DNA of 41,282 bases from Clostridia bacterium (GTDB taxonomy: Bacteria > Bacillota > Clostridia > Christensenellales > CAG-314), in assembly GCA_017457385.1 (NCBI GenBank), contig JAFTHO010000045.1, positions 1-41,282 on the forward strand, read 5' to 3'. The translations under genes were made by a program, and so were the position numbers. Shown piece after piece: positions 2,114 through 18,879 of the stretch; position 1 is the first letter of the stretch, and each line of letters starts with the position of its first letter. The notes beneath the pieces were generated by a model that worked only from the letters and a program-made list of their open reading frames with translations, searched no databases and was not told the origin of the DNA.

Positions 2114-2136
2114 AACACACTTACAAAGTATAATAA

Positions 2137-2166: not shown

Positions 2167-2207
2167 GTTTGTAAAATTTGTTAAAATTAGGTCATAAAAA
2201 TAAAAAA

Positions 2208-2275
2208 CCTCCATCGGAGGAGGGAGGTGGATGCGAGTTTACGAGCAGACGGAGGGAGTCGAAAGTAAAAACCCT
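2208..2275 (+). repeat. Left inverted-repeat arm of cassette 1
   Basis: CCTCCATCGGAGGAGGGAGGTGGAT-GCGAGTTTACGAGC-AGACGGAGGGAGTCGAAAGTAAAAACCCT, a GC-rich island in AT-rich DNA. Confidence 0.9.
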
Positions 2276-2311
2276 CTTTTTTTATTATAAAAAATAGTGT
2301 AAACTAATGCT

Positions 2312-2668
2312 ATGAAAAAATATAATGAAAAAGGGACTCAACTTGCAAAACAATTGCGAAAAAACTCAACCCCGTGGGAAAGAAAACTATGGTATGAGTT
2401 TTTAAAAGATTATTCCACAAGATTTACACGACAAAAACCATTGGGGAATTATATTGCAGATTTTTATTGTTCCAAGGCAAAATTGGTTATAGAACTTGAT
2501 GGCAGTCAACACTTTTTGCCACAAGAAAGTCAAAAAGATTTGCAACGAACAAATGAGTTAGAAAAAACAGGTCTTTTGGTTTTGCGAATAAACAATGACG
2601 AAATTGACAAAAACTTTAACAACGTTTGTGAATATATAGATATGCAGGTTAAAGCAAGGCTAGGGTAG
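2312..2668 (+). CDS. DUF559 family (Vsr/very-short-patch-repair-like) endonuclease
   Basis: Motifs LRKNSTPWERKLW, FTRQKPLGNYIADFYC, IELDGSQH and D..RT..LE..G..VLRI.N.EI. Confidence 0.9.
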   Translation: MKKYNEKGTQLAKQLRKNSTPWERKLWYEFLKDYSTRFTRQKPLGNYIADFYCSKAKLVIELDGSQHFLPQESQKDLQRTNELEKTGLLVLRINNDEIDKNFNNVCEYIDMQVKARLG

Positions 2669-2732
2669 TTTTATTTTCGACTCCCTCCGTCTTTTCGCTA
2701 CGCTCAAATCCACCTCCCTCCTCCGATGGAGG
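2662..2732 (-). repeat. Right inverted-repeat arm of cassette 1
   Basis: Reverse complement of the left arm except for a 15-nt central spacer. Overlaps the DUF559 stop codon. Confidence 0.9.
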
Positions 2733-2803
2733 CTTTAAACAGAATGTTTTAAAATTTAGCAATTTATTAAATTGTAATAGTGTTGCTTTTTATACAAAGT
2801 AAC

Positions 2804-2838
2804 AAAAAAAAGACACGAGAAAAGCACGTGTCTTTTTT
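2804..2838. terminator. Bidirectional terminator-like hairpin
   Basis: AAAAAAGACACG..CGTGTCTTTTTT between the convergent DUF559 and SDR genes. Confidence 0.65.
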
Positions 2839-2856
2839 GTTTTGTTTTTTAGTTGC

Positions 2857-3082
2857 GTCACCACTACAACAAGTCAGCACCATAAAGGCTTTGTTTTACA
2901 ACTGCACCTCATACAGAGCCAACCTTTGGTGACTTTTTACTCGAAGTGGTGCAGTTTACATACCAGCATTTGCAAAGTTTGTTTCAACAAACAAAGTTGC
3001 ATTTTACTCGTGTTTGTCACCACTACAACAAGTCATCACCATAAAAGTTTTGTATAACAACTAAACTTTATACAGAGCCAAC
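2857..3082 (-). repeat. Tandem non-coding repeat (period 159 bp), homologous to 18011-18232
   Basis: 2857-2923 and 3016-3082 match at 58/67 positions without gaps. The reverse complement shares several ordered blocks with 18011-18232. Confidence 0.85.
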
Positions 3083-3109
3083 TCGTTCGCGCGAACTTTT
3101 GAAGTTCGC

Positions 3110-3868
3110 TTATGGACGCAATGCAGAGCCACCTTGGAGTTCGATTGTCTGACCTGTGATATAAGCAGATTCGTCACTTGCAAGGAACACGCAAACACGA
3201 CCGATATCTTCCTGTGGATCGCCAAAGCGGTGAAGTGGGATAGCAGAAAGTTGTTTTGCATACATTTCAGGGAAGGCTTCTTTCCATTGTGCAAGACCAG
3301 GTGTCATTGCGAGTGGGCAAACAACGTTTACACGAATGCCAAATTCGCCCCATTCTGTTGCAGCAGTACGGCTGAGACCACGGATGCCTTCTTTTGCAGC
3401 GCCGTATGATGACTGACCAGGTCTGCCGTGCAAACCGGCACCAGATGCAAAGTTGATGACTGTGCCTTTGCTTTCTTTAAGATAAGGGAAAGCCTCTCTC
3501 ATATACCAGAAAGAAGCATAAAGACCTGTGTAGATAGCAAGGTCAAAATCTTCGGTAGTGTGCTCTACAAGTGTGAGACCAGATTTAGAAGTTTGTGCAT
3601 TGTTTACAATGCTGTCAATGCGACCATAGTGTTCTGCAATTTTTGCAACTGCGTTTTTTACGTCAGCTTCTTTACTGCCGTCTGCAGAAACGCAAAATAC
3701 AGGCACGTTGTAGTCAGCTGTGATTTGTTGTGCTGCTTTTTCAAGTTTGTCAAGGTTGCGACCAGTGATAGCAAGGCTTGCGCCTTCTGCCGCAAAAGCA
3801 CGTGCAATGCCAAGACCAATGCCTTGACCACCACCTGTGACAACAACTACTTTGTCTTTCATTTTCAT
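3110..3868 (-). CDS. Short-chain dehydrogenase/reductase, hydroxysteroid dehydrogenase-like
   Basis: TGGGQGIG NAD(P)-binding motif, NNA and catalytic YGAAK. AAGGAG SD before ATG 3868. Confidence 0.9.
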   Translation of the reverse strand: MKMKDKVVVVTGGGQGIGLGIARAFAAEGASLAITGRNLDKLEKAAQQITADYNVPVFCVSADGSKEADVKNAVAKIAEHYGRIDSIVNNAQTSKSGLTLVEHTTEDFDLAIYTGLYASFWYMREAFPYLKESKGTVINFASGAGLHGRPGQSSYGAAKEGIRGLSRTAATEWGEFGIRVNVVCPLAMTPGLAQWKEAFPEMYAKQLSAIPLHRFGDPQEDIGRVCVFLASDESAYITGQTIELQGGSALRP

Positions 3869-4176
3869 AGGCGTGTTCTCCTTGTGGATAATATAGATAA
3901 CAAAATTATATTGTAAAAAAGTGCAAAAAGCAAACAAAAACAGGGTGTGTTGCAAAACGTTATCTTTTTGACAGATTGAAACAAAAACAAAAAAAGTGTT
4001 TCATATGAACAAAACCTTGTTTAAACAAAAAAACAGATGGATATTAACAAAAGACACAAATTTGAACAAAAAATCTATACAAAATTTATACAGCGGTATG
4101 AATAAAATTGCAAACAATAAAAAAATATCGACAAAAGTCGACAAAGTGTAGTATAATGACGCAACAAGGTGTAAAA

Positions 4177-5796
4177 ATGACGTTTATACAAAAAGCACAA
4201 AATTTTATAAACAGCCTTTCTTTTGTATATGCAGTGGCACTTGCCGTTGCGTTGATATGGCTCATAGGGTGGGAGATTGCCGGCTTTTTTATGCTGGTGG
4301 CTTTTGCATGCACAACGTTGCTTTTGCAACGCAATGCAACGCCATTTGTGGTGATAACAAGCCTTGTTACATATTGTCTGTCACTCAAACAGGTGCCTGC
4401 ATCTATCGAGACAGGCCGTGTGCCGGCAGATTTTGTGTGGCTTGCAGTTGCTCTCATGGTGCTTTTTGCATATATGATTTTTTGCGTGGTATATCACAAG
4501 AAAAAATATCCACGTCAAAACAACAAATTTTTAAACCTTGGCACAAGTTTTGCTTTTTGTCTTGTTGCACTTGCACTTGCAGGTCTTTTTTCTGACCAGT
4601 TCAGTTTTGGCAACAACGCAATAGTGGTTGTGCTTTATGCATTGCTTTTTGTTATATATCTTGTGTTGTCATCAGGTGACATACCAGATTATAAAAAACT
4701 GATTGCTCACATTATTGTGGCGGTGGGCCTTGTTATCAGTTTTGAAGTTATCGTCACAATTGCAAACTGCCCTGACCCAATCACTTACGTGGCACGCAAA
4801 ATGTGGGTTGTTGGATGGGGTGGCCCAAACAACGTTGCAACGACAATGTGTTTTTGCATCATGATGGCATTTTATCTTTGCCTTTCAAACGAAAACCCGT
4901 TGTATCTTGTGCTTGCGGCATGTTTTGTGGTGATAGAGTTGCTCACAGTGAGCAGAGGCAACATATATTCTTTGTTCCTTATCATGCCGTTTGTGGGTGT
5001 GTATGGTTTTGTAAAAACAAAACGCAAAAAAGCAATGGCACTCACCTTGCTGGCAATAGTGGCAGTAGTGGCATTGTTTGTATATACAAATCAGTCGCTT
5101 ATTGACAAACTGTTTGAGGTGATGAGAGAAAAAGGTCTGGAAAACACACCACGACGTGCTTTGTGGGGATATTTTGTAGACTTGTTCAACAACAACAAAC
5201 TGTTTGGTGCAGGCTTTTTCGATCCTGTTTCAAGCACAATGTACAAACCTCATGCAATACTGGTGCACATTTTGTCAGGCATGGGCATTTTTGGTCTGCT
5301 TGTGTTTGGCTATCATTATTATCGCAAATATATCATATTGCTCAGCCATGGCTCTGCATTTCGTTTTTTTGCAGTGATGGTTTGCTATCAGTTGTTTATG
5401 TACAGCGTGATAGATATGGATTTTTATATGATATATCAAAACTTTCTGGTGCTTGGCGTGCTTGAGGCTCTCAAACAAGAGAGAGAAGAGCTTGGCAAAA
5501 CAACACCTATTCTGCACGTGCCGGTGTGGGCAAACGTTGTCATCTGTCTGCTTGGCATAGCCCTTGCAATCGTTGGCACGGTGTTTGTGTCAGACGCCAT
5601 CGTGTGGGAAGAAGGTCTTGGATGGTGCCTGTGGGAAATTGACTATATCATCACCTTTGCGTGTTACGTAGTGGGTGGTGTGGCATTGTTTATCAGCTGG
5701 GGCAACCTGTGGCGCAACAACCTTAAACCGGTTGTAAAACCAAAACTAAAACAACTGCTCGCAAAAATTTTTGGCAACAAACAGACAAACAAATAA
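4177..5796 (+). CDS. Polytopic membrane protein, O-antigen ligase/Wzy-like
   Basis: Many hydrophobic segments plus 'GWGGPNN', 'TVSRG', 'R..LW..F..N.LFGAG', 'H..LVHIL..MGIFG'. Confidence 0.7.
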   Translation: MTFIQKAQNFINSLSFVYAVALAVALIWLIGWEIAGFFMLVAFACTTLLLQRNATPFVVITSLVTYCLSLKQVPASIETGRVPADFVWLAVALMVLFAYMIFCVVYHKKKYPRQNNKFLNLGTSFAFCLVALALAGLFSDQFSFGNNAIVVVLYALLFVIYLVLSSGDIPDYKKLIAHIIVAVGLVISFEVIVTIANCPDPITYVARKMWVVGWGGPNNVATTMCFCIMMAFYLCLSNENPLYLVLAACFVVIELLTVSRGNIYSLFLIMPFVGVYGFVKTKRKKAMALTLLAIVAVVALFVYTNQSLIDKLFEVMREKGLENTPRRALWGYFVDLFNNNKLFGAGFFDPVSSTMYKPHAILVHILSGMGIFGLLVFGYHYYRKYIILLSHGSAFRFFAVMVCYQLFMYSVIDMDFYMIYQNFLVLGVLEALKQEREELGKTTPILHVPVWANVVICLLGIALAIVGTVFVSDAIVWEEGLGWCLWEIDYIITFACYVVGGVALFISWGNLWRNNLKPVVKPKLKQLLAKIFGNKQTNK

Positions 5797-5811
5797 ATAT
5801 CGGCAAAAAAT

Positions 5812-5843
5812 AAAAAACGGACGTGATTTCACGTCCGTTTTTT
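5812..5843. terminator. Bidirectional terminator
   Basis: AAAAAACGGACGTGA-tt-TCACGTCCGTTTTTT between convergent genes. Confidence 0.8.
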
Positions 5844-7228
5844 TATTTTTTGTTTTCTTTCATTTGGCGTTTTGTTATTTTTGCTCTGGCTTTTTTTACA
5901 AACTTGGTGTTTTTGCGACCTTTTCTCACACGTTTGCGGTGGTGTTCCAATGCATGGCGCATGTTCTTTTTGCCTTTAAAAATTGGGTTTTGCTCGTTTT
6001 TGGCAATTACGTCCATATATATTTCGTATGCCATCAAAGCAATTTCGTTCCATTTTTTATACAGCGTCTGTTTTGCACACAAGCCAACTTTTTGCAAAAG
6101 GTCTTTGTCTGCCATGAGTGTGGCTATCTTTTTTGCCATATTGACAGGGTTGTCGTCACACAAAAATCCGTTTGTGTCGTCTGTCACACCGCATGCGGCA
6201 TTGCTGCCCGCAAGCAAAAGACTTGGTGTTTCAAATGCGGCTGCCTCATATTTTACCACGCCGTCGCTGTCGTATACGCTAGGGAACAAAAACAAGTCTG
6301 CCCTGCAATACAACGATTTGAGCAAGGTCTGGTCAAGCACTTTGCCTGTCATCAAAACTTTGTCCTGCAGGTTGTATGCTTTTATTTTTTCTTTAAGACG
6401 GCTTTTTTCGTCACCGTCGCCGACGTATATCATCCTGAAGTTTGTTTGCGTTTTTGACAGGTGATAAATTGCATCAAGGATGAGATATATGTTTTTTGGT
6501 TTTATCAGTCTGCCAACAAACAGCAACACAGTTTCGTCAGGTGACAAACCATACGTCTGGTTGCAGATGTTTTTCAGTTCGTCAAGGTCGCCGTCGTAAG
6601 ACATATCCGTGCCGTTTGGCAAAATTTTTACGTCTCCGTTAAAGCCATATGACCTCAAAGTGTCACGGGTGGCTGTGTTCATTGTGAGCACCACGTCAGA
6701 CAAGTGAAAAACTTTCATGATAGCGTCAAGTGCAACGTTTTTGAGGCTGTCAAGCTTTAGCACACGTTTGAGATCCTGGTGATATTGCGTGTGGAAAGTT
6801 GACACAACGGGTATATGCCTTTCGTTGGCATATTCTATCATAAACCTGCCCGTAAAGTATGGGCTGTGTATATGTATAAGGTCAATGTTTAGTCTGTCAA
6901 GCAGACGACGGAATTTTTTGTCGTTTTTTGCATGGCTGTAGTCATATCTCAACGGATGAAAATAGGTTGAGTTGCAAAACAAAACTGCAGTGTCACAAAG
7001 TGGCACCTTCCATCTGTGGGTAGGGGCGCACACAAGCACGTTGACCTTGTCTTTAAGGTTTTTTGCATAGTTGTCAATAACAGTCAGCACGCCGTCAACT
7101 ATTGGATAATAGTTGTCGTTTACAATGACTATTGTTTTTTTGCCATTGTTGTTAAACTCATCAATGACTTTTTCCATCTCAAGGTAATATTGTTTTTTGC
7201 CTTGACTGTCCAGTTTTTTGTATTCCAT
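5843..7228 (-). CDS. GT4 family glycosyltransferase (glycolipid synthase-like)
   Basis: DNYYPIVDGV, HIHSPY, TFHTQY, LFVGRL..KN and DLFLFPS.YD..GVV..EAAA motifs. Confidence 0.88.
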   Translation of the reverse strand: MEYKKLDSQGKKQYYLEMEKVIDEFNNNGKKTIVIVNDNYYPIVDGVLTVIDNYAKNLKDKVNVLVCAPTHRWKVPLCDTAVLFCNSTYFHPLRYDYSHAKNDKKFRRLLDRLNIDLIHIHSPYFTGRFMIEYANERHIPVVSTFHTQYHQDLKRVLKLDSLKNVALDAIMKVFHLSDVVLTMNTATRDTLRSYGFNGDVKILPNGTDMSYDGDLDELKNICNQTYGLSPDETVLLFVGRLIKPKNIYLILDAIYHLSKTQTNFRMIYVGDGDEKSRLKEKIKAYNLQDKVLMTGKVLDQTLLKSLYCRADLFLFPSVYDSDGVVKYEAAAFETPSLLLAGSNAACGVTDDTNGFLCDDNPVNMAKKIATLMADKDLLQKVGLCAKQTLYKKWNEIALMAYEIYMDVIAKNEQNPIFKGKKNMRHALEHHRKRVRKGRKNTKFVKKARAKITKRQMKENKK

Positions 7229-7318
7229 ACTACCTCTTTATTTCAAATACACATACAATATTATATCACGCACTTGAAAAGTATGCAAGGGTGGTTTTTG
7301 GTTAAACAAAACAAACAA

Positions 7319-7462
7319 TCAGCTCACAAAGTGGGTGGGGTTGTAGCAGGTTGGGCAAAGGTGATGATTTTGTTTTGAGCAGTCGGGGCATACCACGTCG
7401 TTGCATTTGTTGCACACACAAAAGTCTTTGTCCAGTTGTTTTTTGCAGTTAAAACACTTCAT
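7319..7462 (-). CDS. 47-aa Cys-rich putative zinc-finger microprotein (absent from ORF track)
   Basis: Manual translation: MKCFNCKKQLDKDFCVCNKCNDVVCPDCSKQNHHLCPTCYNPTHFVS*, with four CxxC motifs. Confidence 0.7.
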   Translation of the reverse strand: MKCFNCKKQLDKDFCVCNKCNDVVCPDCSKQNHHLCPTCYNPTHFVS

Positions 7463-7593
7463 GTCAAAAGGATATCCTTTTTTTGCAAAATCAAACAAAA
7501 CAAAAACTTTGTTGACACTATCAACAAAATTTGCACGGTATTTGCAAAACGTATGGACTTTTGAAAAAAAATAAACTATAATTAATTAACTAT

Positions 7594-8823
7594 ATGAAAG
7601 AAAAACAAAAAACGGTTGAACAAGAGTCTTTCGAACAAAAGATGACCATAGCCGAGCAGGAGTTTAAACTCAAACAGGCAGACAACACGGCAAAACAGTT
7701 AGAAGACAGAAAGAGCAAAGCAAACAAATTTGGCTATTTCTTTTTGTTGCTTACCGTAATTGCGCTTGTTGTCATTGCCGTGAGTGAGTTTAACAACAAC
7801 GAAGAGTATCCTTTGTCACTTGTGCTCAGCACCTGGGGACAAAACTGGCATTATATTCTGGCAGCAGTGGGATGCATTGTTTTATTGCTGTTTTTTGACG
7901 GTTTTCGTCAGTCTGTGCTTTTGCGTGGTTCAACGGGCAAGTGGCGTTTAAAGCTCACCTTTAAAAGCATGATTCTCGGCAGATATTTTGACAATATCAC
8001 ACCGTCTGCTATTGGCGGACAACCTTATCAGGTGTATTATCTGCACAAACACAAAGTGCCTGCAGGCATTGCAACAAGTTTGCCTGTGGTGTGCTTTTTT
8101 ATGCAACAGTTTGCATTTTTTGTGCTTGTTGTCATTTGCTTTGCGGTGTTTGGCCCAATTGTAGACAATCCATGGCTCAAAGTGGCAATCTATTTTGGCT
8201 CTTTGTGTATGATAGCAATGCCGTTGTCTATCATGATTTTTGCCTTTATACCAAAAACTGCACAAAAAATTGTTCGTGGCATTATTTTGCTTTTAAACAA
8301 AATAAAAATCGTCAAAAACAAAGAGGTTTTGATGTACAAATTTGACAACTACGTCAACGACTACAGCAAAAGCCTCAAAATCATAGGTGGACACAAAAAA
8401 ACACTCATCACAAGTTTTTTGTGTGCGCTTGTTTGTCAGTTGCTCAACTATTCGGTAGTATATTTTATCGTGCTTGCCAGTGGCGAAAGTCTGCCATGGT
8501 TTTACGTAATTGCACTTATGGCATATACTTCTGCCGCAAGTGCCTTTATACCAACACCTGGTGGCTCTGGTGCGATGGAAGGTTTCTTTTATCTCATCGT
8601 GTCTGTGCTGGTGGGTGGCTTTAGGTTCTGGGGCATGCTGTTGTGGCGTATACTCACCTTTTATATCCCGACAATCGTTGGTCTGGCAGTGCTTGTCAAC
8701 AACACAATCAAAGACAAAAGTTATCGCAGAAGGGGGTTGTTGCGCACCTCTTCGGATGACGACGATCAAAGTTTGATTGCAAGTGCCAATCCAGACGAAA
8801 AACAAGAAAATCAAGACGGCTGA
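7594..8823 (+). CDS. Lysylphosphatidylglycerol synthase TM / flippase-like membrane protein
   Basis: GRYFDNITPSAIGGQP, IPTPGGSGAMEG and LLWRILTFY motifs. Confidence 0.85.
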   Translation: MKEKQKTVEQESFEQKMTIAEQEFKLKQADNTAKQLEDRKSKANKFGYFFLLLTVIALVVIAVSEFNNNEEYPLSLVLSTWGQNWHYILAAVGCIVLLLFFDGFRQSVLLRGSTGKWRLKLTFKSMILGRYFDNITPSAIGGQPYQVYYLHKHKVPAGIATSLPVVCFFMQQFAFFVLVVICFAVFGPIVDNPWLKVAIYFGSLCMIAMPLSIMIFAFIPKTAQKIVRGIILLLNKIKIVKNKEVLMYKFDNYVNDYSKSLKIIGGHKKTLITSFLCALVCQLLNYSVVYFIVLASGESLPWFYVIALMAYTSAASAFIPTPGGSGAMEGFFYLIVSVLVGGFRFWGMLLWRILTFYIPTIVGLAVLVNNTIKDKSYRRRGLLRTSSDDDDQSLIASANPDEKQENQDG

Positions 8824-8903
8824 CCGCCGTCTTTTTTTGTGTCAAAAATAGCAAAAAATATTTTGTTTGTGTGCGGTCTGCTTTTTGTGTGGGTTTTTAA
8901 AAA

Positions 8904-9659
8904 TCACATGGTCACACAAGACAGCAAAAATGGCAATACCATATATGGGGCAAATTTTGCAAACTCGCCTTTTTGAGATATTTTTTTGAGCAAGCCAAGT
9001 GACAAAAAACCAAAAACAAAACTTGTGACAACACCCACCGCAACGGCAGGGATATCCACAGTTGCGTTTGTGCTCAAAACGTCTGGCAGGGTCAAAACTA
9101 TACTGCCCAGAATTACAGGTATGCTCATAAGAAAAGACAACTCGGTTGCGCTGTCGTTTTTTGTTCCACACCACTTTAGCAGGCATATTGTTGCGCCACT
9201 GCGTGACAACCCGGGCAACACGGCAATGCCTTGCACCACACCGCACAGCAATGCAGTTTTGTATTTTGTGGTCAGCAAATTGTGTTTTTGTTTTGTGGCA
9301 AACTGACTTGTGCACAACAAACCAAAAGTGAGTGCAAAACCAACGGGCAACAAAAGCCCATCCAAAAGGGATGGCAAAAAAAGTTTGGCAAGCAACCCGA
9401 TGGCAACTGTGGGTATGGTTGCAAGGTATACAAGTTTTGCTTTTTTGCAAAAGGGGTGAGTTAGCAACTGCCACACCTGTTTTTTATAAAACAACAAAAC
9501 TGCCACCAGAGTGCCAAAATGCAAAGATACGTTCAAAAACAAATCCGGCGACAAACCAAACAGTTTTTGCACCAAAATCAAATGCCCACTGCTTGATACA
9601 GGCAAAAACTCTGTCAAACCTTGCACAACACCAAGCACAAAACTGCAAAAAACTGACAT
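8904..9659 (-). CDS. uppP: Undecaprenyl-diphosphate phosphatase
   Basis: QGLTEFLPVSSSGHL and PGLSRSGAT motifs. Confidence 0.93.
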   Translation of the reverse strand: MSVFCSFVLGVVQGLTEFLPVSSSGHLILVQKLFGLSPDLFLNVSLHFGTLVAVLLFYKKQVWQLLTHPFCKKAKLVYLATIPTVAIGLLAKLFLPSLLDGLLLPVGFALTFGLLCTSQFATKQKHNLLTTKYKTALLCGVVQGIAVLPGLSRSGATICLLKWCGTKNDSATELSFLMSIPVILGSIVLTLPDVLSTNATVDIPAVAVGVVTSFVFGFLSLGLLKKISQKGEFAKFAPYMVLPFLLSCVTM

Positions 9660-9802
9660 ATACCACCCTAACAAATAGTCAAAACAAATTTTTTTTGATA
9701 TAATAAATCTATATATGGTCAATTTTTGCCTTTTTTGCAAAAACAAAACCATATTAAATTATATTAGTTAAAACAAAACAAAATGTTTTTTGGGAGAGAA
9801 AT

Positions 9803-10900: not shown

Positions 10901-10998
10901 TAATCAAAAAAACACAGCCATACATGGCTTTGTTTTTTGAAAAATAAAATTGCGCAAAACAAACTTGCATACACAATTATCCAAAGAAAAGAAGAGTT

Positions 10999-11523: not shown

Positions 11524-11553
11524 TTGATTTTTAACTTTTTTATACATAAAACC

Positions 11554-11580
11554 AAAGCACGGCAAAAGCCGTGCTTTTTT
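11554..11580 (+). terminator. Terminator hairpin, copy 1 of an identical 27-bp repeat
   Basis: AAAGCACGGCAAAAGCCGTGCTTTTTT. Confidence 0.85.
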
Positions 11581-11637
11581 GTGTTGAAAACACACGCAAA
11601 CAGTGATAATATATAAAAAAACGATATAGGTGTTGAT

Positions 11638-12141
11638 ATGAAAAAAGTTTTGATTGTAATTGATATGCAAAATGATTTTATAACAGGTGCACTTGCAAAC
11701 AAAGATGCACTTGCCATTGTAGAATCCGTTGCGCAAATGGTGGCAAATTTTGATGGCGACGTTATTGCCACGAGAGATACTCATGGGGCAGATTATCTCA
11801 ACACGACAGAAGGAAAACTTTTGCCAGTAGAACATTGTATTGCTGGCAGTGACGGTTGGCAAATTGTTGACAAAATAAAAACAGAAATTGACAAAAAGGG
11901 TGGAATAGTGATAGACAAGCCAACTTTTGGATACAAAGACTGGCAACTTGACGGCTATGACGTTGCAGAAATAGTCGGCACTTGCACAGATATTTGTGTT
12001 GTCAGCAATGCACTTATTTTAAAGGCACTTTATCCGGATATGCAAGTGGTGGTGCACGGAAGTTTGTGTGCTGGGCTTACTCCACAAAAACATGCACATG
12101 CACTTGACGTAATGGCAAGTTGTCAATGCAAAGTGATTTAA
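11638..12141 (+). CDS. pncA: Cysteine hydrolase, nicotinamidase/isochorismatase family
   Basis: IDMQNDF, TRDTH, PVEHC..GS.GW, DKPTF and GTCTDICV. Confidence 0.8.
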   Translation: MKKVLIVIDMQNDFITGALANKDALAIVESVAQMVANFDGDVIATRDTHGADYLNTTEGKLLPVEHCIAGSDGWQIVDKIKTEIDKKGGIVIDKPTFGYKDWQLDGYDVAEIVGTCTDICVVSNALILKALYPDMQVVVHGSLCAGLTPQKHAHALDVMASCQCKVI

Positions 12142-12268
12142 AACAAAAAACCAATCGCTAAAAGGTATTTTTTAAGTTTGTTTTGTTGCGATTGGTTTAA
12201 ATTAGTGTTAAAATTTTTGGGCATAGTTTAAAATTACCCTGCTTTTTGCAGGTTTTTGGAGAAATATT

Positions 12269-13672
12269 ATGGAAAGAGAAAAACTTGGCAGTCGTCTTGG
12301 CTTTATTTTGCTCAGTGCCGGCTGTGCAATTGGTGTTGGCAACGTGTGGAAGTTCCCATGGATGGTTGGCCAATACGGTGGTGGTATATTTGTTCTTATT
12401 TATTTGTTCTTTCTTGTCGCTATGGGCATTCCTGTAATGACAATGGAGTTTTCGCTTGGTCGTGCAAGTCAAAAAAGCCCTGTCAAACTTTATGACGCAC
12501 TTGCTCCAAAAAACAGCAAATGGAAGTTGCACGGTTGGGCAGCGCTTGTGGGCAACGTTGTGCTCATGATGTTTTACACAGTTGTTACAGGCTGGCTTTT
12601 GCAATATTTTGTAAAAATGATAAAAGGCGACTTTAAAGGTCTTGACAGTGCTGGCGTAAGTGGTGAGTTTGGCAATATGGTCAGCGACCCTGGCATGATG
12701 ACTTTGTTTGTTGCTATCGTTGTTGTGGTTGGCTTTTTGGTGCTTTCTTTCGGCGTTAAAAACGGTTTGGAAAAAGTAACAAAGGTAATGATGCTTGCTT
12801 TGCTTGCAATTATGGTGGTGCTTGCCTTTAACGGATTTTTCCTTGACGGTGCGGCAGAAGGCCTCAAATTTTATCTCATACCAAACTTTGACACAATGGC
12901 AGATGCCGGTATAAATATTTTTCAGGTTATAACTGCTGCAATGAGTCAGGCATTTTTTACTTTGTCACTTGGCATTGGCTCTATGGCTATTTTTGGCAGT
13001 TATCTTGGCAAAGACAGATCACTCATGGGCGAATCTGTAAACGTTGCTATTTTGGATACTTGCGTTGCTTTGGTTGCAGGCCTTATTATCTTCCCTGCAT
13101 GCTTTACTTACAACAACGGCAACGTAAACGCAGGCCCTGCACTTATTTTCGAAACTTTGCCAAACGTGTTCAACCATATGCCACTTGGTCAGTTGTGGGG
13201 CAGTTTGTTCTTTTTGTTCCTTTCTTTTGCGGCACTTTCTACAATCTTTGCCGTGTTTGAAAACATCCTTGCATGTATACAGGACATTACAAACTGGTCA
13301 CGCAAAAAAATCTGCATAGTTGCAGGTATAGGTTTGTTTGTGTTGTCAATCCCATGTGTGCTTGGCTTTAACCTGTGGGCTGGTTTTGAACCTTTTGCCT
13401 TTGTAAAACCTGGCACAAACATTATGGATCTTGAAGACTTTATCGTGTCAACTTTGTTGTTGCCAATTGGCTCGCTCATTTTTGTGTTGTTCTGCACAAG
13501 CAAAAAAGGCTGGGGATGGGACAACTTTGTGGCAGAGGCAAACACAGGCAAAGGTTTTAAAGTAAAACCTTGGATGAAAACTTATATGAAATACGTTTTG
13601 CCAGTGCTTTTATCAATCTTTATCGTCATCAGCATAGTCACTTTCTTCTGGCCAAACATTTTTGCATTTTAA
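12269..13672 (+). CDS. Sodium-dependent transporter (NSS/SNF family)
   Basis: GCAIGVGNVWKFP and QAFFTLSLG motifs; multiple TM segments. Confidence 0.93.
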   Translation: MEREKLGSRLGFILLSAGCAIGVGNVWKFPWMVGQYGGGIFVLIYLFFLVAMGIPVMTMEFSLGRASQKSPVKLYDALAPKNSKWKLHGWAALVGNVVLMMFYTVVTGWLLQYFVKMIKGDFKGLDSAGVSGEFGNMVSDPGMMTLFVAIVVVVGFLVLSFGVKNGLEKVTKVMMLALLAIMVVLAFNGFFLDGAAEGLKFYLIPNFDTMADAGINIFQVITAAMSQAFFTLSLGIGSMAIFGSYLGKDRSLMGESVNVAILDTCVALVAGLIIFPACFTYNNGNVNAGPALIFETLPNVFNHMPLGQLWGSLFFLFLSFAALSTIFAVFENILACIQDITNWSRKKICIVAGIGLFVLSIPCVLGFNLWAGFEPFAFVKPGTNIMDLEDFIVSTLLLPIGSLIFVLFCTSKKGWGWDNFVAEANTGKGFKVKPWMKTYMKYVLPVLLSIFIVISIVTFFWPNIFAF

Positions 13673-13683
13673 TATAACAAATT

Positions 13684-13710
13684 AAAGAGTGTCTTTCGAC
13701 ACTCTTTTTT
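13684..13710 (+). terminator. Intrinsic terminator
   Basis: AAAGAGTGTC-tttc-GACACTCTTTTTT. Confidence 0.85.
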
Positions 13711-13723
13711 GTTGCCTTTTGTG

Positions 13724-13752
13724 TTGCAAAAAAGCGTATATGGTGCTAAAAT
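13724..13752 (+). promoter_or_regulatory. Sigma-A-type promoter of the riboswitch leader
   Basis: TTGCAA-17 bp-TAAAAT with extended -10 TG. Confidence 0.6.
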
Positions 13753-13773
13753 TTTGTCAAACAAAACAGTGCA

Positions 13774-13951
13774 TAAAGAAGACGCACCTTTTGAGTGCGT
13801 GACTCAACTGCGGTTGAGCCCAGGGAATGCAGTGCAAATCTGCAACAGCCCCCGCTACTGTATGTGGCTACGTGTTTTTATATCCATTGCCCCTTTGGGG
13901 TGAGAAGGCAAAAACGTCGGCTATGCCACAAAGTCAGGAGACCTTTCTTTA
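13774..13951 (+). ncRNA. Cobalamin (AdoCbl) riboswitch
   Basis: GGGAATGCAGTGCAAATCTGCAACAGCCCCCGCTACTGTA core and AGTCAGGAGACC B12 box. P1 is TAAAGAAG/CTTTCTTTA. Probable attenuator hairpin at 13999-14029. Confidence 0.92.
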
Positions 13952-14068
13952 AACAATGCACAAAGATACTATCTTCGGAGGGAAGAGGGTGCTTTTTTGA
14001 TGGACGTATGCGTGGTAGTCCGTCTTTTTGCAACTGCTCTTTCGGGCAGTTTTTTTGTTTATCCGTTT

Positions 14069-14151
14069 AAAGGCTCCAGTTGCGTTTTGCTAAAGCAAAT
14101 TCGCAATATTGCGAAGGAGGGAGCTGTCGCGCAAGCGACTGAGGGAGTCGA
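14069..14151 (+). repeat. Solo arm of the DUF559-associated repeat family
   Basis: AAAGGCTCC...GGGAGCTGTCGC-gcaa-GCGACTGAGGGAGTCGA matches the left arm of cassette 2. Its 3' end matches the left arm of cassette 1. Confidence 0.85.
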
Positions 14152-14212
14152 TATGACTCAAAAATTTTGTTTTATGCCCGAAACAACCTCTCCATATTTT
14201 GGAGGAAATTTT

Positions 14213-14689
14213 ATGAAAACTTTTACAAAAAAACTTTTGGCACTTTTGCTTGTTGTCTTGTCTGTGTTTGCTTTTGCAGGTTGTGGCGACAGCTATGCAC
14301 TCAAAGGAGATGCAACTGTGATTATTCATGGCGAAACAGACGTGGTATACGAGGTTGACCTTGACGAAGCAGAGTTTACAACGCAAAACACCGTGCTCGA
14401 TTTGCTTGCTTATCTGTGTGAGCAAGACGACCTTGCTTTCAGTGCGGGTGCAAACGGCTCTGCAGAGTGGGGTTACAGTGCTTTTATCAACAGCATTGGC
14501 GACCTCGTCCCAGGTGGCAACCAGTACGTAGCGTTTTTTCACAACAAACAAAGCGACAAAGATGTGTCTGCCTATGCATTGCCAGACAGACAATATGGCG
14601 ACACAACTTTGTATTACAGCGGACTTGGCGTTGGCAGTGTAAAACTTGTTGATGACCTTGTGGTATATTTTTGTATAGAAAGTTTTTGA
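14213..14689 (+). CDS. Lipoprotein, putative cobalamin-binding (transcobalamin C-terminal/DUF4430-like)
   Basis: GGAGG SD, lipobox FAG-C, 'TVLDLL' and 'FINSIG' segments. First gene behind a B12 riboswitch. Confidence 0.65.
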   Translation: MKTFTKKLLALLLVVLSVFAFAGCGDSYALKGDATVIIHGETDVVYEVDLDEAEFTTQNTVLDLLAYLCEQDDLAFSAGANGSAEWGYSAFINSIGDLVPGGNQYVAFFHNKQSDKDVSAYALPDRQYGDTTLYYSGLGVGSVKLVDDLVVYFCIESF

Positions 14690-14690
14690 T

Positions 14691-15212
14691 ATGAAGTCAG
14701 CAAAAGGCATAGCAACAATTGCCATTATGGCGGCAACAATGTCTGGTGGCAAACTTGCAATGAGCGTGTTGCCAAATATCGAGCCGGTCACAATTTTGAT
14801 TGCAGTGTATGCAAGTGTTTTTGGTTTTGCATACGTTTTGCCTGCGTCGGTGGTTTTTGTGGTGCTTGACGTGTTGGTATATGGCCTCAACACGTGGGTG
14901 ATATCTTATCTGATATACTGGCCGTTGGTTGCACTTGTTTTTGCAACGCTAAACGTCAGACAAAGGGGTCTTGTGGCAAACCTTGTCACGGCAGTTTTGC
15001 TCACTTTGTTTTTTGGTGTGCTGACAAGTCTGGTAGACGTTGGCTTGTTTTTGGGTGCATTTGACAACTTTTGGCAAAGGTTTGGCGTCATGTATGCACG
15101 TGGCATTCCGTTTTTTGTCACACACGTTGTGTCTAACTTTGCCATATTTTTGCTTTGCTACAACCCGCTGTGCAAAGCGCTGGGCAAGGTTAGAAAGGTG
15201 GTTTTAGATTAA
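14691..15212 (+). CDS. ECF transporter S component, cobalamin (CbrT-like)
   Basis: LPNIEPVT, WVISYL..W and 'G.PF..THVVSN' motifs; six hydrophobic helices; riboswitch context. Confidence 0.8.
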   Translation: MKSAKGIATIAIMAATMSGGKLAMSVLPNIEPVTILIAVYASVFGFAYVLPASVVFVVLDVLVYGLNTWVISYLIYWPLVALVFATLNVRQRGLVANLVTAVLLTLFFGVLTSLVDVGLFLGAFDNFWQRFGVMYARGIPFFVTHVVSNFAIFLLCYNPLCKALGKVRKVVLD

Positions 15213-15430
15213 AAGAAAAGTTTGTTGCTTTTGCAACAGGTCAGAGCTATAACGTGATTGATTTTTGTTGATACAAATTAAAAAAGCCTTCCTCTTAAAA
15301 AAGGATAAGGCTTTTTTTGTTGCATATTGACATTGGTTTTTATATTTTATAAAATAATTAAAAACAATCCTGATATTTGCGACAATTTTTGTTGGGCAAA
15401 TTAATACCGTGTTATTAAGGAGGGGGATAA

Positions 15431-16348
15431 ATGAAAAATAAAATAAAATCATTGTTGATACTGTTGCTTTCGTTTATTTGTATTTTTGCATTTTGTGCCT
15501 GCAACAATGACCCACCGCCTGACAACGATGGAGGGTCAGACTCTGGCACACAAAGTGGTACTTCGTCTGAAAGTGGTTCTGCATCAGGCAGTGGTTCATC
15601 ATCAGGCAGTGGTTCTGCATCAGGCAGTGGTGCGTCATCAGGTGGTGGTACGTCGTCTGATAGCACACAAGGTGGTACGGTTGTACCAAATTTCTCTGAT
15701 TTTGATTATACAATAACAGACGGCAAGGTGACTATTACTCAATATATAAGGACAAAAACAGTTGTTGAAATTCCTGCAACGATTGAAAACAAACCAGTTG
15801 TTGCCATTGGTGAAGACGCATTTGAAAACAAAGACCACGTGACAAACGTGACTATTGCAAACAGTATAACAACAATCGGAAAAAGTGCATTTGAGGATTG
15901 CGATAACTTGACGTCAGTTGTTTTTGCAAATGGCAGTCAACTTGAAACTATTGGCGAATATGCTTTTTATAACTGCAAAAAACTTGCAGACTTAACGTTG
16001 CAATCAGGTCTTAAAACAATAGGTAGAAGTGCTTTTTCATATTGTGCTTTTGATACAATGACATTGCCAAATGGTGTCGAAATTATTAATGCCTTTGCTT
16101 TTTCTGACTGTAGCAAACTTGAATATATCGTTATACCTGAAAGTGTTGTGACAATAGATGAGTTTGCTTTTTTCAACAATCCAAATCTTACAATATACTG
16201 TATGGCAACAAGCAAACCTGCATCGTGGGGTGATAGTTGGAATCATACGGCACTTACGTACTGGTATAGCGAAACTCAACCAACAACTGCGGGTAACTAC
16301 TGGCATTATGTCAATGGTGAGCCAACAGTATGGGGAGTTGCAGATTAA
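15431..16348 (+). CDS. BspA-type leucine-rich-repeat lipoprotein
   Basis: Lipobox FCA-C, Ser/Gly linker and repeated 'IG..AF..C..L..V.I' units. Confidence 0.88.
   Translation: MKNKIKSLLILLLSFICIFAFCACNNDPPPDNDGGSDSGTQSGTSSESGSASGSGSSSGSGSASGSGASSGGGTSSDSTQGGTVVPNFSDFDYTITDGKVTITQYIRTKTVVEIPATIENKPVVAIGEDAFENKDHVTNVTIANSITTIGKSAFEDCDNLTSVVFANGSQLETIGEYAFYNCKKLADLTLQSGLKTIGRSAFSYCAFDTMTLPNGVEIINAFAFSDCSKLEYIVIPESVVTIDEFAFFNNPNLTIYCMATSKPASWGDSWNHTALTYWYSETQPTTAGNYWHYVNGEPTVWGVAD
15554..15661 (+). repeat. Six imperfect 18-bp tandem units encoding the Ser/Gly linker
   Basis: AGTGGTTCTGCATCAGGC-like units at 15554, 15572, 15590, 15608, 15626 and 15644. Confidence 0.85.
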
Positions 16349-16370
16349 AACAAAAAAAACAAAAACAAAA

Positions 16371-16395
16371 AAAAGGGACGATTTTTCGTCCCTTT
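16371..16395. terminator. Bidirectional terminator
   Basis: AAAGGGACGA-tttt-TCGTCCCTTT between convergent genes. Confidence 0.75.
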
Positions 16396-16401
16396 AGTTT
16401 T

Positions 16402-17523
16402 TTATAACAAAAACGAAGTTGCAACAAGCACTGCCAAAAAGCCAAAGTTTAGTGCGTGTGCAAGCAAAAGATATCCTTTTGCTTTGCCAGGCTGATAAAG
16501 CGTAAAGTGCTTGAATGTGATGAGGCTGGCAAGTGAAGAAATGAGCGATCCGCAACCGCCAATGTTTACTGCCACAAGCAGGTTTGCATAGTCTGCAGTA
16601 AAGCCAGACAACAAAATTGCACTTGGCACGTTGCTTATCACCTGACAGGACAGCACGCCTGTGAGCAATGTGTTTTTGTCAAGCAGACCTGCAAAAAAGT
16701 CGTTTACCGCAGGGATTCTTGTCAGATTGCCCGAAAACACAAAAAACATGCAAAAGGTGAGCAACAAAACGTAGTCAACGTCAAACACCGCCTGTCTGTC
16801 CATAAAATAAAGCACGGGTATCACAAGCAAACCCGTCCAGTATGGCACCACACGAAAAACAATTATTATTGCATAGGCAAAAAAGGCAAAATAAACAAGT
16901 GCTTTTTTTACGTCAAGTTTTTTGTTTGTTGTTTTGCCACACTCCAGCGGTTCGTTTTTGATGAACATACAGCAAATTACAATCAGCACTATTGATACCA
17001 CGGTTGGCTTCCACATGATTGCAAAAAACTCTGCTGTTGCAATGTCAAACGTGTTGTAAAGATAAAGGTTTTGTGGGTTGCCAAAAGGTGTTATCATGCC
17101 ACCAAGGTTTGCCGCAATCGTCTGCATAATGAATGTAAACGCCATATACTTTTCTTTTTTGGTGGTTGCAAGCACAAAATAGCCAAGTGGCAAAAAGGTC
17201 ACAAGTGCCATGTCGTTTGCAATCAGCATAGAGGCAAAATAGGTGATAAACACAAGTGCCGTTATTGCAGAGCGTGTGGTCTTGAACACCTTTATTATTT
17301 TGTTTGCCAAAATGCGAAAAAAGCTTATGTGCCTGAGGGCAGAAATAACTGCCAGCATTACAAACAGACTGACAAGTGTTTTAAAGTCGAAATAGTCTAT
17401 ATATTGTGCATCAGGCAACACAAAAAAGCATGACAAAATTGCCGCAAAAGTTGCGATAGAAAACACAATGTTCTTTTTTATAAATGCCAAAACAAAGTTT
17501 GGTTTTTTTGCAATATTTTCCAT
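16402..17523 (-). CDS. ArsB/NhaD/CitMHS-type (SLC13-like) anion transporter
   Basis: NDMALVTFLP, AANLGGMITPFGNPQNL and SQ.ISNVP-like motifs. Confidence 0.85.
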   Translation of the reverse strand: MENIAKKPNFVLAFIKKNIVFSIATFAAILSCFFVLPDAQYIDYFDFKTLVSLFVMLAVISALRHISFFRILANKIIKVFKTTRSAITALVFITYFASMLIANDMALVTFLPLGYFVLATTKKEKYMAFTFIMQTIAANLGGMITPFGNPQNLYLYNTFDIATAEFFAIMWKPTVVSIVLIVICCMFIKNEPLECGKTTNKKLDVKKALVYFAFFAYAIIIVFRVVPYWTGLLVIPVLYFMDRQAVFDVDYVLLLTFCMFFVFSGNLTRIPAVNDFFAGLLDKNTLLTGVLSCQVISNVPSAILLSGFTADYANLLVAVNIGGCGSLISSLASLITFKHFTLYQPGKAKGYLLLAHALNFGFLAVLVATSFLL

Positions 17524-17634
17524 ATCAATTTTTCCCCAAAAAGTTATACACCCACGCAGTTTAAATGTCAAACAAAACAACAAAAAAAGACGGAGTTTTT
17601 ACTCCGTCTTTTTGATTTGTTTTTTAGTTTTTAT

Positions 17635-17937
17635 TTATTTTTTTTCTGCAAAAGTCACTTCAACTTCTTTCAGTTCGCCGTCTGGGTCGTCGATTGCAGG
17701 CACGTGTGCTTTGTATACCTTTATTTCGCTGTTTTTGTTGTGCACCAAAATGCATACAACAGGGCCAACGACAAACAAAAGTTGCACCACAAAATGCCAA
17801 ACAACAACAGGCAAGCCTTTGTTTTTGTATTTCAAAAGTCTCATTACACTAATCATTGCAAGTGGATAGTGTATTATCAAAACGGCAATAATGCCAATCA
17901 AAAGTGGTACTTTTTCTGGTGAAATCGCAAGCAACAT
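17635..17937 (-). CDS. Small hypothetical membrane protein
   Basis: GAGGT SD, two hydrophobic helices, acidic tail and a downstream terminator hairpin at 17582-17612. Confidence 0.7.
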   Translation of the reverse strand: MLLAISPEKVPLLIGIIAVLIIHYPLAMISVMRLLKYKNKGLPVVVWHFVVQLLFVVGPVVCILVHNKNSEIKVYKAHVPAIDDPDGELKEVEVTFAEKK

Positions 17938-18010
17938 ATATTTTACCTCAAATTTTATTGTGCCTAAATTATACAGTCAAAAATGATATTTGTAAATAGG
18001 GCACACTTAC

Positions 18011-18232
18011 AAAGTGTGCAAAAGTATGCTTTGAATATGGTTTCTTTGTGAAACAAAGCTTTTATAGTGCTGACAAATTGCAGAGGCACACGAACACGAG
18101 TAAAAGGTTTGTTAACAACACACAGCAAGGGCTGATATGTTGCTATACCACTTCGAGTTAAAGTGTGCAAGAGTTGGCTCTGTATATAGTACCATTGATA
18201 CACAAAACTTTTATGGTGCTGACAAATTGCAG
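18011..18232 (+). repeat. Tandem non-coding repeat (period 149 bp), homologous to 2857-3082 (minus)
   Basis: 18011-18083 and 18160-18232 match at 59/73 positions without gaps. Confidence 0.85.
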
Positions 18233-18263
18233 CGACTCACAAGATGAACACATTATTAAAAAA

Positions 18264-18781
18264 GGCTCCTCCTGACGGGGGAGCTGTCGCACGAATGGGC
18301 GACTGAGGGAGAGATAACCTGCACAAAAACAATAAAATATGTTATACTTTAACTATGAAAGAATACAACAAAAACAACACCAAAAAAGCACAATATCTTC
18401 GCAAAAATGCAACCCCATGGGAAAGAAAGTTGTGGTATGAATTTTTGAAAGACTATCCAATACGTTTTCAGCGACAAAAACCAATAGACAATTTTGTGGC
18501 AGATTTTTATTGTGCAAAGGCAGGCATTGTTTTAGAACTTGATGGTGGCGAACATTTTTCGTCGCAAACGTTGCAATATGATCAGATGAGAACAGAAATA
18601 TTGCAAAAAAAAGGTGTAAAAGTAGTCAGAATTTGCAACAACGAAATTGACAAAAATTTTGAAGGTGTTTGCGAATATATAGATGATATTGTAAAACAAA
18701 ATTTAAAGAGCAGATAACAAGCATACGTCATCTCTCCCTCAGTCTGGCATACGCCAGCCAGCTCCCCCGTCAGGAGGAGCC
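18264..18781. mobile_element. DUF559 cassette 2: endonuclease gene bounded by long inverted repeats
   Basis: 18264-18286 is the perfect reverse complement of 18759-18781 (23 bp), and 18301-18315 of 18730-18744 (15 bp). Mobility is inferred. Confidence 0.6.
18355..18717 (+). CDS. DUF559 family endonuclease, paralog 2
   Basis: LRKNATPWERKLW, FQRQKPIDNFVADFYC and LELDGGEH. 73/118 residues identical to 2312-2668 by manual ungapped alignment. Confidence 0.9.
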   Translation: MKEYNKNNTKKAQYLRKNATPWERKLWYEFLKDYPIRFQRQKPIDNFVADFYCAKAGIVLELDGGEHFSSQTLQYDQMRTEILQKKGVKVVRICNNEIDKNFEGVCEYIDDIVKQNLKSR

Positions 18782-18879
18782 CTTTTTATTTTGTCTTTGC
18801 TGTTGGTTTTGTTGTCAGTTTGCAATTTAAGGACAATATCGTTTATGCGAGGTTTTTGAAATCCTGCCTGCATAAAAAT

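Follow-up and report, generated by a model that had tools for sequence, protein, structure and literature searches.

The stretch of DNA analysed here, 41,282 nt of contig JAFTHO010000045.1 from a Clostridia bacterium (assembly GCA_017457385.1) and called the window below, contains two genes for small proteins of the DUF559 family. Each gene is framed by inverted copies of a two-hairpin unit of about 58 nt, and the same unit is dispersed without a gene over the rest of the genome. The arrangement recurs around most of the close homologues and is found again in other phyla, and gene and repeat occur together across genomes of the order. On balance, with a little more belief than doubt, we read the two loci as a partnership between a nuclease and its repeat, of the kind represented by RAYT transposases with repetitive extragenic palindromic (REP) sequences or by Ssn nucleases with their NTS repeats, built here on a nuclease of Vsr fold that would act on the arms of its own gene.

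The two loci and the dispersed unit

Short-word BLAST of the four gene arms against the genome that holds the window (G000; 1.57 Mb in 206 contigs, 95% complete) showed each arm to be one copy of the dispersed unit. In an alignment of 16 copies the unit reads AAAG, a first hairpin (P1), TG(G/T), a second hairpin (P2), an unpaired tract GAC(G/T)GAGGGAG and then TCGA or AGATAACG. The P1 stem is CCTCC...GGAGG or GCTCC...GGAGC, with C-G to G-C exchanges in RNAalifold on these copies; P2 is free in sequence and preserved in its pairing. A covariance model of the unit, R1, matched G000 34 times: at the four gene arms, at 14069-14155, weakly at 28017-28065 and, for the rest, on 20 or more other contigs. 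About 30 copies are orphans without a gene, a ratio of units to genes of 15 to 1, and such dispersed orphan copies are, by analogy, the property that defines a REP-like repeat. The conservation of the hairpins was equally evident in 138 distinct units from 80 other genomes, where pairing cells amounted to 95.8% compared with 72.1% after shuffling, the covariation score was 0.557 compared with 0.151 for shuffled and at most 0.164 for slid partners, and 10 of 12 pairs contained double changes, in an alignment whose fitting to R1 favours the structure. Folded as single-stranded DNA (ssDNA), the units are predicted to form two hairpins (z −3.5 to −4.5), less well so for the arms of the first window locus, in which P2 is degenerate (z −2.3 and −0.5).

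Two DUF559 units of about 520 bp with inverted arms had been reported in a preliminary description of this DNA, and both are present where it had placed them, at 2208-2732 (U1) and 18264-18781 (U2). The gene of U1 (2312-2668, plus strand) encodes 118 aa and scores 108.9 bits with Pfam PF04480, that of U2 (18355-18717, plus strand) 120 aa with 95.1 bits, the curated cut-off being 20.6 bits. A profile search found no more than these two DUF559 matches in G000. The proteins share 73 identical residues, as had been counted, over 117 aligned positions instead of the 118 given earlier (62%).

The left arm of U1 (2204-2270, plus strand) is one unit of the CCTCC form, here type I, made up of the P1 hairpin, TGG, the degenerate P2 and GACGGAGGGAGTCGA; it matches R1 over 2204-2266 (63.2 bits) and is identical, in 55 of 55 nt, to an orphan copy on contig C27. 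The right arm (2669-2736, minus strand; R1 match 2673-2736, 66.2 bits) is an inverted type I unit that begins right behind the stop codon. In U2, the left arm (18257-18319, plus strand; R1 match 18261-18319, 69.1 bits) is a type II unit with GCTCC...GGAGC, TGT, P2 and GACTGAGGGAGAGAT, predicted to fold into two ssDNA hairpins (z −4.05). Its counterpart on the right (18726-18788, minus strand; R1 match 18726-18784, 70.8 bits) is an inverted type II unit with a T-run after the P1 hairpin and a fold of z −3.51.

The arms of U1 pair at 2204-2237 with 2703-2736 (34 nt, 91%) and at 2242-2270 with 2669-2697 (29 nt, 90%), those of U2 at 18257-18318 with 18727-18788 (62 nt, 84%). Within these pairings we recovered exactly the perfect segments of the preliminary description, and none could be extended: 25 nt (2208-2232 / 2708-2732) and 18 nt (2247-2264 / 2675-2692) in U1, 23 nt (18264-18286 / 18759-18781) and 15 nt (18301-18315 / 18730-18744) in U2. 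Local alignment of the upstream with the reverse-complemented downstream flank scored 90 for U1 and 74 for U2, compared with means of 18.7 and 17.3 and maxima of 30 and 26 in 500 shuffles of the flanks (z = 28.5 and 25.8). As one strand, the whole of U1 is predicted to form a long end-to-end stem of −194.8 kcal/mol (−110.9 ± 5.9 after shuffling, z −14.1). Rfam, searched over 2000-19000 at E <= 1, has no family for the arms; the sole real match was a cobalamin riboswitch.

An AlphaFold model of the U1 protein (pLDDT 86.3) and profile comparisons point to two solved relatives, 3hrl, which is NGO0050 of N. gonorrhoeae (profile E 8.7e-20, Foldseek TMq 0.68), and 3r3p, the catalytic domain of the homing endonuclease I-Bth0305I (profile E 6.8e-4, TMq 0.70). 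Vsr (1cw0) came next in the Foldseek list with a TMq of 0.61. Going by these models, the DUF559 proteins are Vsr-like alpha/beta proteins with a PD-(D/E)xK nuclease fold. E61, D63, H67, D76, R79 and T80 are invariant among the seven proteins aligned and are candidate active-site residues. The ORF (open reading frame) had no match among transposase families.

Of the 24 units that nhmmer detected in G000, 21 fall between genes on a crude ORF map. Inverted doublets without a gene occur at C13:15674-15847 and on C71. The orphan of the window (14069-14155, plus strand; R1 35.3 bits, E 3.1e-8) is of type II with an insertion of about 30 nt in the P1 loop, and it has a cobalamin riboswitch on one side and the next ORF on the other. 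It falls within the span of the preliminary description, which had missed both this unit and the dispersed family; the further match at 28017-28065 (minus strand, 21.9 bits, E 0.001) is doubtful. The riboswitch itself (13786-13964, plus strand; Rfam RF00174, 84.3 bits) ends about 100 nt upstream of the orphan. The ORF 13997-14689 encodes a product with a lipoprotein-like signal sequence; it contains an in-frame ATG at 14153, and the GAGGGAG of the orphan unit lies 6 nt upstream of this ATG. In a contig of run X4, 186 other letters replace 14055-14165, the site of this orphan.

Large inserts were also seen in other units (L016, G000:C177:343-488; L017, C72:8574-8669; L021, C140), where about 100 nt replace P2 or 30-45 nt are found in the P1 loop; the repeat element tolerates or acquires inserts. 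A cluster of another genome (G027:C27:23402-24214) resembles bacterial interspersed mosaic elements (BIMEs), with eight units in alternating orientation that form four convergent pairs, the partners of each pair 4-29 nt apart.

As to the surroundings of the two loci, the genes around both units are gltX, an SDR gene, a CitMHS transporter gene and a gene for a Gate-domain protein. Directly after gltX, a strong hairpin with a T-run (2137-2166), conserved in the sister genome G001, is likely the gltX terminator; U1 begins about 35 nt past it.

Homologous loci in other species and phyla

Homologues were scanned with one genome per species, which gave 593 relatives among 600 candidates, and the best 80 loci were used. 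They come mostly from gut Clostridia (Acutalibacteraceae, Oscillospiraceae and similar), with a Bifidobacterium and others, and many of them run out at contig borders. We called a gene bracketed if its upstream and downstream flanks formed an inverted repeat that beat all 60 shuffles at z > 3. Most homologues carry flanking inverted repeats, a check that the preliminary description had proposed: 50 of the 73 loci with enough flank are bracketed, compared with 21 of 148 control ORFs drawn at random from G000 (up to 300 aa), and a score of at least 38 was reached at 38 of the 73 and at 3 of the 148. Mismatched loci were unusable as a control for the inverted-repeat test (95th percentile 50.6) because the arms of different loci are homologous, and shuffles and control ORFs were used instead.

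At least one unit was present in 76 of the 80 loci and none in four, and 144 of 164 units lay within 200 nt of the gene. R1 matched the homologous loci 168 times in 232,555 bases, as against the 34 matches in all of G000. The canonical layout, with a plus-strand unit upstream and a minus-strand unit downstream, was found at 34 of the 80 loci. In 18 loci no unit stood upstream and a plus-strand unit came first downstream, mostly followed by a minus-strand unit, hence an inverted doublet behind the gene.

The layout extends to other phyla. A tblastn search of a plasmid collection, which includes some mislabelled chromosomes, returned 32 records, and 11 of the 16 loci examined had bracketing inverted repeats at z > 8. 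These were S. meliloti (114-nt arms, 97% alike), Novosphingobium, Sphingobium, two Sphingomonas plasmids, Qipengyuania and Azospirillum lipoferum, as well as Deinococcus psychrotolerans, Pseudanabaena, Picosynechococcus and N. gonorrhoeae. Here too, C-runs and G-runs make up the hairpin stems. In Novosphingobium the arm has the form P1-TGG-P2-GACGGAGGGG and matches R1, while the protein match is only 33.7% identical to that of the window. The local arms are dispersed in such replicons as well, with 85 BLAST matches in the S. meliloti record and seven in the Novosphingobium plasmid. Between pntA and pntB (L151, a Sphingomonas plasmid) and between paaD and paaZ (L153, a Deinococcus plasmid), a DUF559 gene with its arms lies within an operon, in what looks like an insertion into the intercistronic spacer. 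Together with the orphan copies in G000, the bracketing of homologues in other species and in other phyla strengthens the earlier proposal of a RAYT/REP-like element driven by a different nuclease.

Alternatively, the two proteins could be mismatch-repair nickases of the ordinary Vsr-like type whose partner, a cytosine methyltransferase, is encoded elsewhere in the genome, with the flanking repeats as incidental neighbours. Such a role has a parallel in the Caulobacter DUF559 protein VsrA, which is linked functionally to an unlinked cytosine methyltransferase (PMC12907096, in the text available), and a second dispersed repeat, unrelated to the unit, occurs in the intergenic regions of both window loci. 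Incidental neighbours, however, would not bracket the homologues at the rate given above over control ORFs, nor would they recur in several phyla with one and the same layout. Neither unit has a methyltransferase gene as a neighbour, a statement about the neighbours only, as the rest of the genome was not searched for methyltransferases. We regard this explanation as very unlikely.

In many relatives the arms serve the gene as well. The left arm stops 1-5 nt ahead of the start codon in 29 of the 43 loci that have one, and its GGAGGG is there placed as the ribosome-binding site (Shine-Dalgarno sequence); at 38 of 63 loci the right arm starts −11 to +5 nt from where the protein match ends, and there it encodes the last codons and the stop. 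At the window loci, left arm and ATG are instead set apart by an AT-rich stretch that contains promoter-like hexamers. In U1 (gap 2259-2311, plus strand) these are TCGAAA-18-TATTAT at 2259-2288, in U2 (gap 18320-18354, plus strand) TGCACA-17-(TG)TATACT at 18320-18348, which ends 7 nt ahead of the ATG; both are consensus matches only.

Such placements would be expected if the arms were modules that control in cis the expression of a nuclease gene with the potential to do harm, and if the protein itself did not act on them: hairpins and a Shine-Dalgarno sequence at the 5' end, a stabiliser or terminator at the 3' end, and long-range pairing of the two ends that silences translation. Orphans would then be leftovers of decayed gene units or recruited RNA elements. 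The T-runs after the P1 hairpin of the right arm and the end-to-end stem of U1 fit this idea too. Gene decay, however, fails to explain the 15 to 1 ratio in G000 or a genome with 95 gene-less units (G052, see below), and the orientation of orphans relative to genes is inconsistent. In the window, the promoter-like sites lie within the left arm boundary, so that the left arm may escape transcription with the gene. Moreover, near-identical motifs across phyla, next to proteins with identities down to about 33%, point to a reader acting in trans. Expression modules on their own therefore seem to us an unlikely account of the repeat.

Comparison of the arms with each other revealed a regular order. 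At 23 of 32 canonical loci, or 25 with two unclear ones, a left arm of type I (CCTCC stem, TGG, GACGG) is combined with a right arm of type II (GCTCC stem, TGT, GACTG, P2 well conserved). The arms of U1 are type I and those of U2 type II, which makes U1 I/I and U2 II/II; elsewhere among the 32 loci the unusual arrangements are two I/I, two II/II and two II/I. The arms of U1 and U2 thus represent two old, conserved types, and the I/I and II/II arrangements of the window are exceptional.

The preliminary description had proposed that each gene keeps a privately co-diverged, matched pair of ends, and this was not supported. The median identity of a left arm to its own right arm is 0.76, to the right arms of other loci 0.72, and the own partner ranks first at 3 of the 32 loci. 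As types I and II usually stand around one and the same gene, the difference between U1 and U2 is no evidence of co-evolution of gene and ends. Some matching of arms to gene lineages is possible, since 11 of 18 tests on paralogues in four multi-copy genomes found each gene bracketed by inverted repeats of its own (z > 7) and the P1 stems differ among paralogue loci (CCTCCC, CCCCCC, CCCCTCCCC). Recent transposition of the gene was considered and rejected for these four genomes, whose paralogues share 65-72% nucleotide identity.

The same order of types bears on the term invertible, which had been applied to the two units. If the inverted arms were crossover sites of a programmed switch, the gene would be flipped between them, and "DUF559 domain-containing protein" is indeed enriched (odds ratio 14.3) among predicted programmed-inversion targets (PMC9881135), in a row that passes without comment in the main text of that work as available. 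This enrichment is expected because the arms overlap the ORF ends, and it would be accounted for by them. No recombinase lies beside either unit, and a promoter-like site inside the arms travels with the gene, which leaves a flip without obvious effect. Finally, the orientation of the gene relative to the arm types is constant in the 23-25 of 32 loci and reversed in two. Assembled contigs over the region contain no inverted form, although rare variants are beyond what contigs can reveal. We therefore give hardly any credence to an inversion switch, and nothing supports the term.

Presence and absence of gene and repeat

We compared the distributions of gene and repeat in 151 genomes of the order that are at least 90% complete, with thresholds of E <= 1e-4 for R1 (best 36 candidates scored per genome) and E <= 1e-10 for DUF559. 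Repeats were detected in 27 genomes and the gene in 24. Both were present in 19, repeats only in eight, the gene only in five and neither in 119, which corresponds to an odds ratio of 56.5 and a naive Fisher p of 1e-13 that ignores kinship. Expressed differently, the gene was found in 19 of 27 repeat-positive and in 5 of 124 repeat-negative genomes, and the double-positive genomes are spread over at least nine families. Two of the five gene-only genomes bear arms of the family that R1 had overlooked. In G000 (95% complete), the Y1 transposase profile PF01797 had no match, and the single GIY-YIG match is part of a 377-aa frame, with no small GIY-YIG nuclease; neither known type of repeat-associated nuclease is therefore present in this genome.

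In the nearest sister genome, G001, whose flanks are 76-89% identical, U1 and U2 are missing at the syntenic sites, as is the orphan at C118:16136. The search for empty sites, as recommended in the preliminary description, thus found both units absent from a relative, but without clean borders. Three more genomes of the genus (G002-G004) are without a DUF559 gene, and in only one of them did a unit match turn up, single and weak (E 9.4e-4); at site 1 the three share gltX alone. Near one orphan site, a tandem GC-rich segment (L142, G001:C92:1230-1400; L128, G000:C177:9870-9970) differs in copy number between the two sisters.

Several findings weigh against a partnership of nuclease and repeat. 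With respect to distribution, eight of the 27 repeat-positive genomes have no gene, three of the five gene-only genomes have no arms, 23 of the 73 close homologues are without bracketing inverted repeats, and the same is true of five of the 16 loci from other phyla (E. coli, Photobacterium, Sinorhizobium K101, A. brasilense and, with z 3.4, Synechocystis). The sister genome G001 contains 11 units and no DUF559 gene. In G052, which is 98% complete and was searched without 1,806 of its bases, a 240-kb part of a single contig contains 95 units, and DUF559 is unmatched even at E 0.01.

With respect to mobility, the indels relative to G001 (about 830, 865 and 116 nt) exceed the units and have ragged borders off the unit ends, with no clear target-site duplication at any of the three. 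The gene copies within one genome are old, with no sign of recent gene movement. To our knowledge, PD-(D/E)xK nucleases do not rejoin DNA, and spread of the units would therefore depend on host functions. At gene 3' ends the orphans are without clear orientation bias (13 sense, 8 antisense). Lastly, a ribosome-binding site and a terminator-like hairpin in the arms could by themselves keep arms beside the gene, and it is from layout and comparison that we infer an action of the protein on them.

In G052 (C4:1-240000), nearly all units between 80 and 230 kb are on one strand, in a region with a GC skew of −0.08 to −0.19 (20-kb bins). Its units share conserved flanks, which makes the repeated element larger than the unit. 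The ORF map of this contig is crude, and the 42 of 95 units that it places inside ORFs are an unreliable guide to replication or transcription bias. A 2.3-kb segment framed by inverted units contains a HAD hydrolase gene and otherwise unmatched ORFs only.

In another reading, the repeats would be made and spread by something else and the DUF559 gene would be a selfish passenger of homing type, which lands in inverted doublets or homes to them. The relative 3r3p is the catalytic domain of a homing endonuclease, the distribution of the gene within a genus is patchy, insertions are found inside operons, and repeats without the gene make up the 8 of 27 genomes already named. The gene-less doublet on C13, with type I and type II units in the arm order of the gene-bearing units and a short spacer, could be an empty site. 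On the other hand, G000 offers no other candidate enzyme for the repeat, neither a Y1 transposase nor a small GIY-YIG nuclease, and the co-occurrence of gene and repeat is strong. At many loci the start and end of the ORF are fused with the arms, which looks like long co-evolution and not like repeated insertion; furthermore, two gene copies face about 30 units, and paralogues are old. We consider the passenger improbable.

The favoured reading, a nuclease acting on its own repeat, could operate as follows. The DUF559 protein would recognise the folded unit in single-stranded or extruded DNA and nick it in or beside the conserved unpaired tract GAC(G/T)GAGGGAG. Host replication or repair may then copy, delete or recombine units, by which the enzyme would maintain or control its own repeat population. 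Cutting of repeat-bearing DNA in the manner of SsnA would be an equally possible alternative. Binding, the site of the cut, a preference for single strands and a role in repeat spread are all predictions of this scheme. We extend it beyond the two loci tentatively and with somewhat more doubt than belief: stand-alone small DUF559 proteins may be structure- and sequence-specific nucleases on their own framing repeat and form a third, independently evolved nuclease-repeat symbiosis after RAYT/REP and Ssn/NTS, present at least in Bacillota, Actinomycetota, Pseudomonadota, Deinococcota and Cyanobacteriota and creating the REP-like repeats of many gut Clostridia and alpha-proteobacteria.

Relation to known nuclease-repeat systems

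The REPtron pattern has been defined for RAYT and REP sequences (PMC3733652 and abstracts). As far as these sources describe it, the DUF559 loci share with it a nuclease gene of low copy number between inverted copies of a hairpin repeat, the occurrence of this repeat by the tens to hundreds, whether single, in inverted doublets or in clusters, a layout preserved over large distances, and the co-occurrence of gene and repeat with patchy gain and loss. The enzymes differ, since RAYT is a Y1 transposase of the HUH type and the DUF559 protein, of Vsr fold and PD-(D/E)xK type, has no known joining activity. So do the repeats: the present unit consists of two hairpins in about 58 nt, and in place of a GTAG tag it has the conserved unpaired tracts TGG and GAC(G/T)GAGGGAG.

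RAYT/REP had been named as the analogue in the preliminary description, rightly so, but the kind has a further precedent in the Ssn nucleases of the GIY-YIG family, reported in 2025, which cut ssDNA at hairpin repeats flanking their own genes (PMC11893778). According to the accessible part of that report, 42% of the Ssn homologues are flanked on both sides, and the Ssn gene is present in 81% of the genomes with more than 200 repeats. The DUF559 system resembles this one in its small single-domain nuclease, in a gene with hairpin repeats of its own on either side, in the genome-wide spread of the repeat, and in an association that crosses phyla and includes co-occurrence of gene and repeat. Beside P2, the minus strand carries an unpaired tag (C/A)GTC, and NTS starts with CGTC in the description available. 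In contrast to Ssn, the fold is that of DUF559 and not GIY-YIG, the hosts are gut Clostridia, and the unit adds to what is seen in NTS/SRM a conserved P1 hairpin and a G-rich tail. Cleavage specific for ssDNA is proven for Ssn in the same report, whereas the DUF559 system is known here from its sequences.

A third comparison concerns the CGTC-tagged REPs of Di Nocera et al. (2013, PMC3733652), described there with a CGTC tag, a stem of 8-9 bp, a loop of 4-5 nt and a CCA tail. On the minus strand, P2 likewise consists of a (C/A)GTC tag, a stem, a 4-nt loop, the second stem strand and CCA or ACA, and head-to-head dimers and heterodimers are frequent in both. The Novosphingobium arm, with a stem that starts in A/T, is a better fit. 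In the Firmicutes units, however, stems measure 5-7 bp instead of the 8-9 bp of the published description. P1 and the GAGGGAG tail are always part of the present unit, and the text of PMC3733652 at our disposal lists no Firmicutes. The resemblance of the P2 tag to CGTC REPs and NTS may reflect either common descent or convergence. We had considered DUF559 as the missing enzyme of the CGTC REPs, but this is largely pre-empted, CGTC-tagged NTS/SRM being already partnered by Ssn in the available text of PMC11893778.

Homing endonucleases of the I-Bth0305I type and Vsr have the same fold as the DUF559 proteins; unlike them, the window genes are located in no intron or intein, have no methyltransferase adjacent and are framed by dispersed repeats. 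The units differ from an insertion sequence or miniature inverted-repeat transposable element (MITE) as well, in that the ORF matches no transposase family and the indels relative to G001 have no evident target-site duplication. The earlier statement that no transposase, recombinase or target-site duplication is to be seen accordingly stands, for the ORF, for the genes adjacent to the units and for these indels, respectively.

A nuclease with its own repeats is thus a known arrangement; what is new here is the family of the enzyme, the two-hairpin form of the unit and its hosts among the Clostridia. The openly accessible literature, with subscription journals and supplements outside its scope, yielded no account of DUF559 genes with flanking or dispersed repeats, and neither DUF559 nor Vsr is mentioned in the main text, as available, of the Ssn paper (PMC11893778) or of a 2026 preprint on the mining of non-coding elements.

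DUF559 is a large family of many phyla with no assigned substrate, although the crystal structure of a member (3hrl) was released in 2009, and the flanking repeat is a concrete candidate for one. If our reading is right, the combination of a small nuclease with its own dispersed hairpin repeat arose on three unrelated folds, HUH, GIY-YIG and PD-(D/E)xK. Gut Clostridia join the organisms with REP-like repeats, with 30 copies in G000 and 95 in 240 kb of G052, a group on which the REP survey PMC3733652 is silent in its accessible text. Like Ssn, such enzymes might serve as site-specific reagents for structured or single-stranded DNA.

Repeats of this family also break metagenome assemblies. In the contigs of four runs over 1500-19500, which are short, small indels were seen in the U1 right arm at 2696 and 2705, and some of the unit-to-unit joints in them resemble assembly paths through repeats.

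The second dispersed repeat of the window, unrelated to the two-hairpin unit and about 60-150 nt in length, had no match in Rfam at E <= 1. It adjoins both DUF559 units in tandem pairs, on the minus strand at 2861-3010, 3020-3082 and 18107-18223. By BLAST it has 11 matches in G000, with C60, C6, C83, C162, C159 and C140 among the contigs concerned, and many copies are present in G001.

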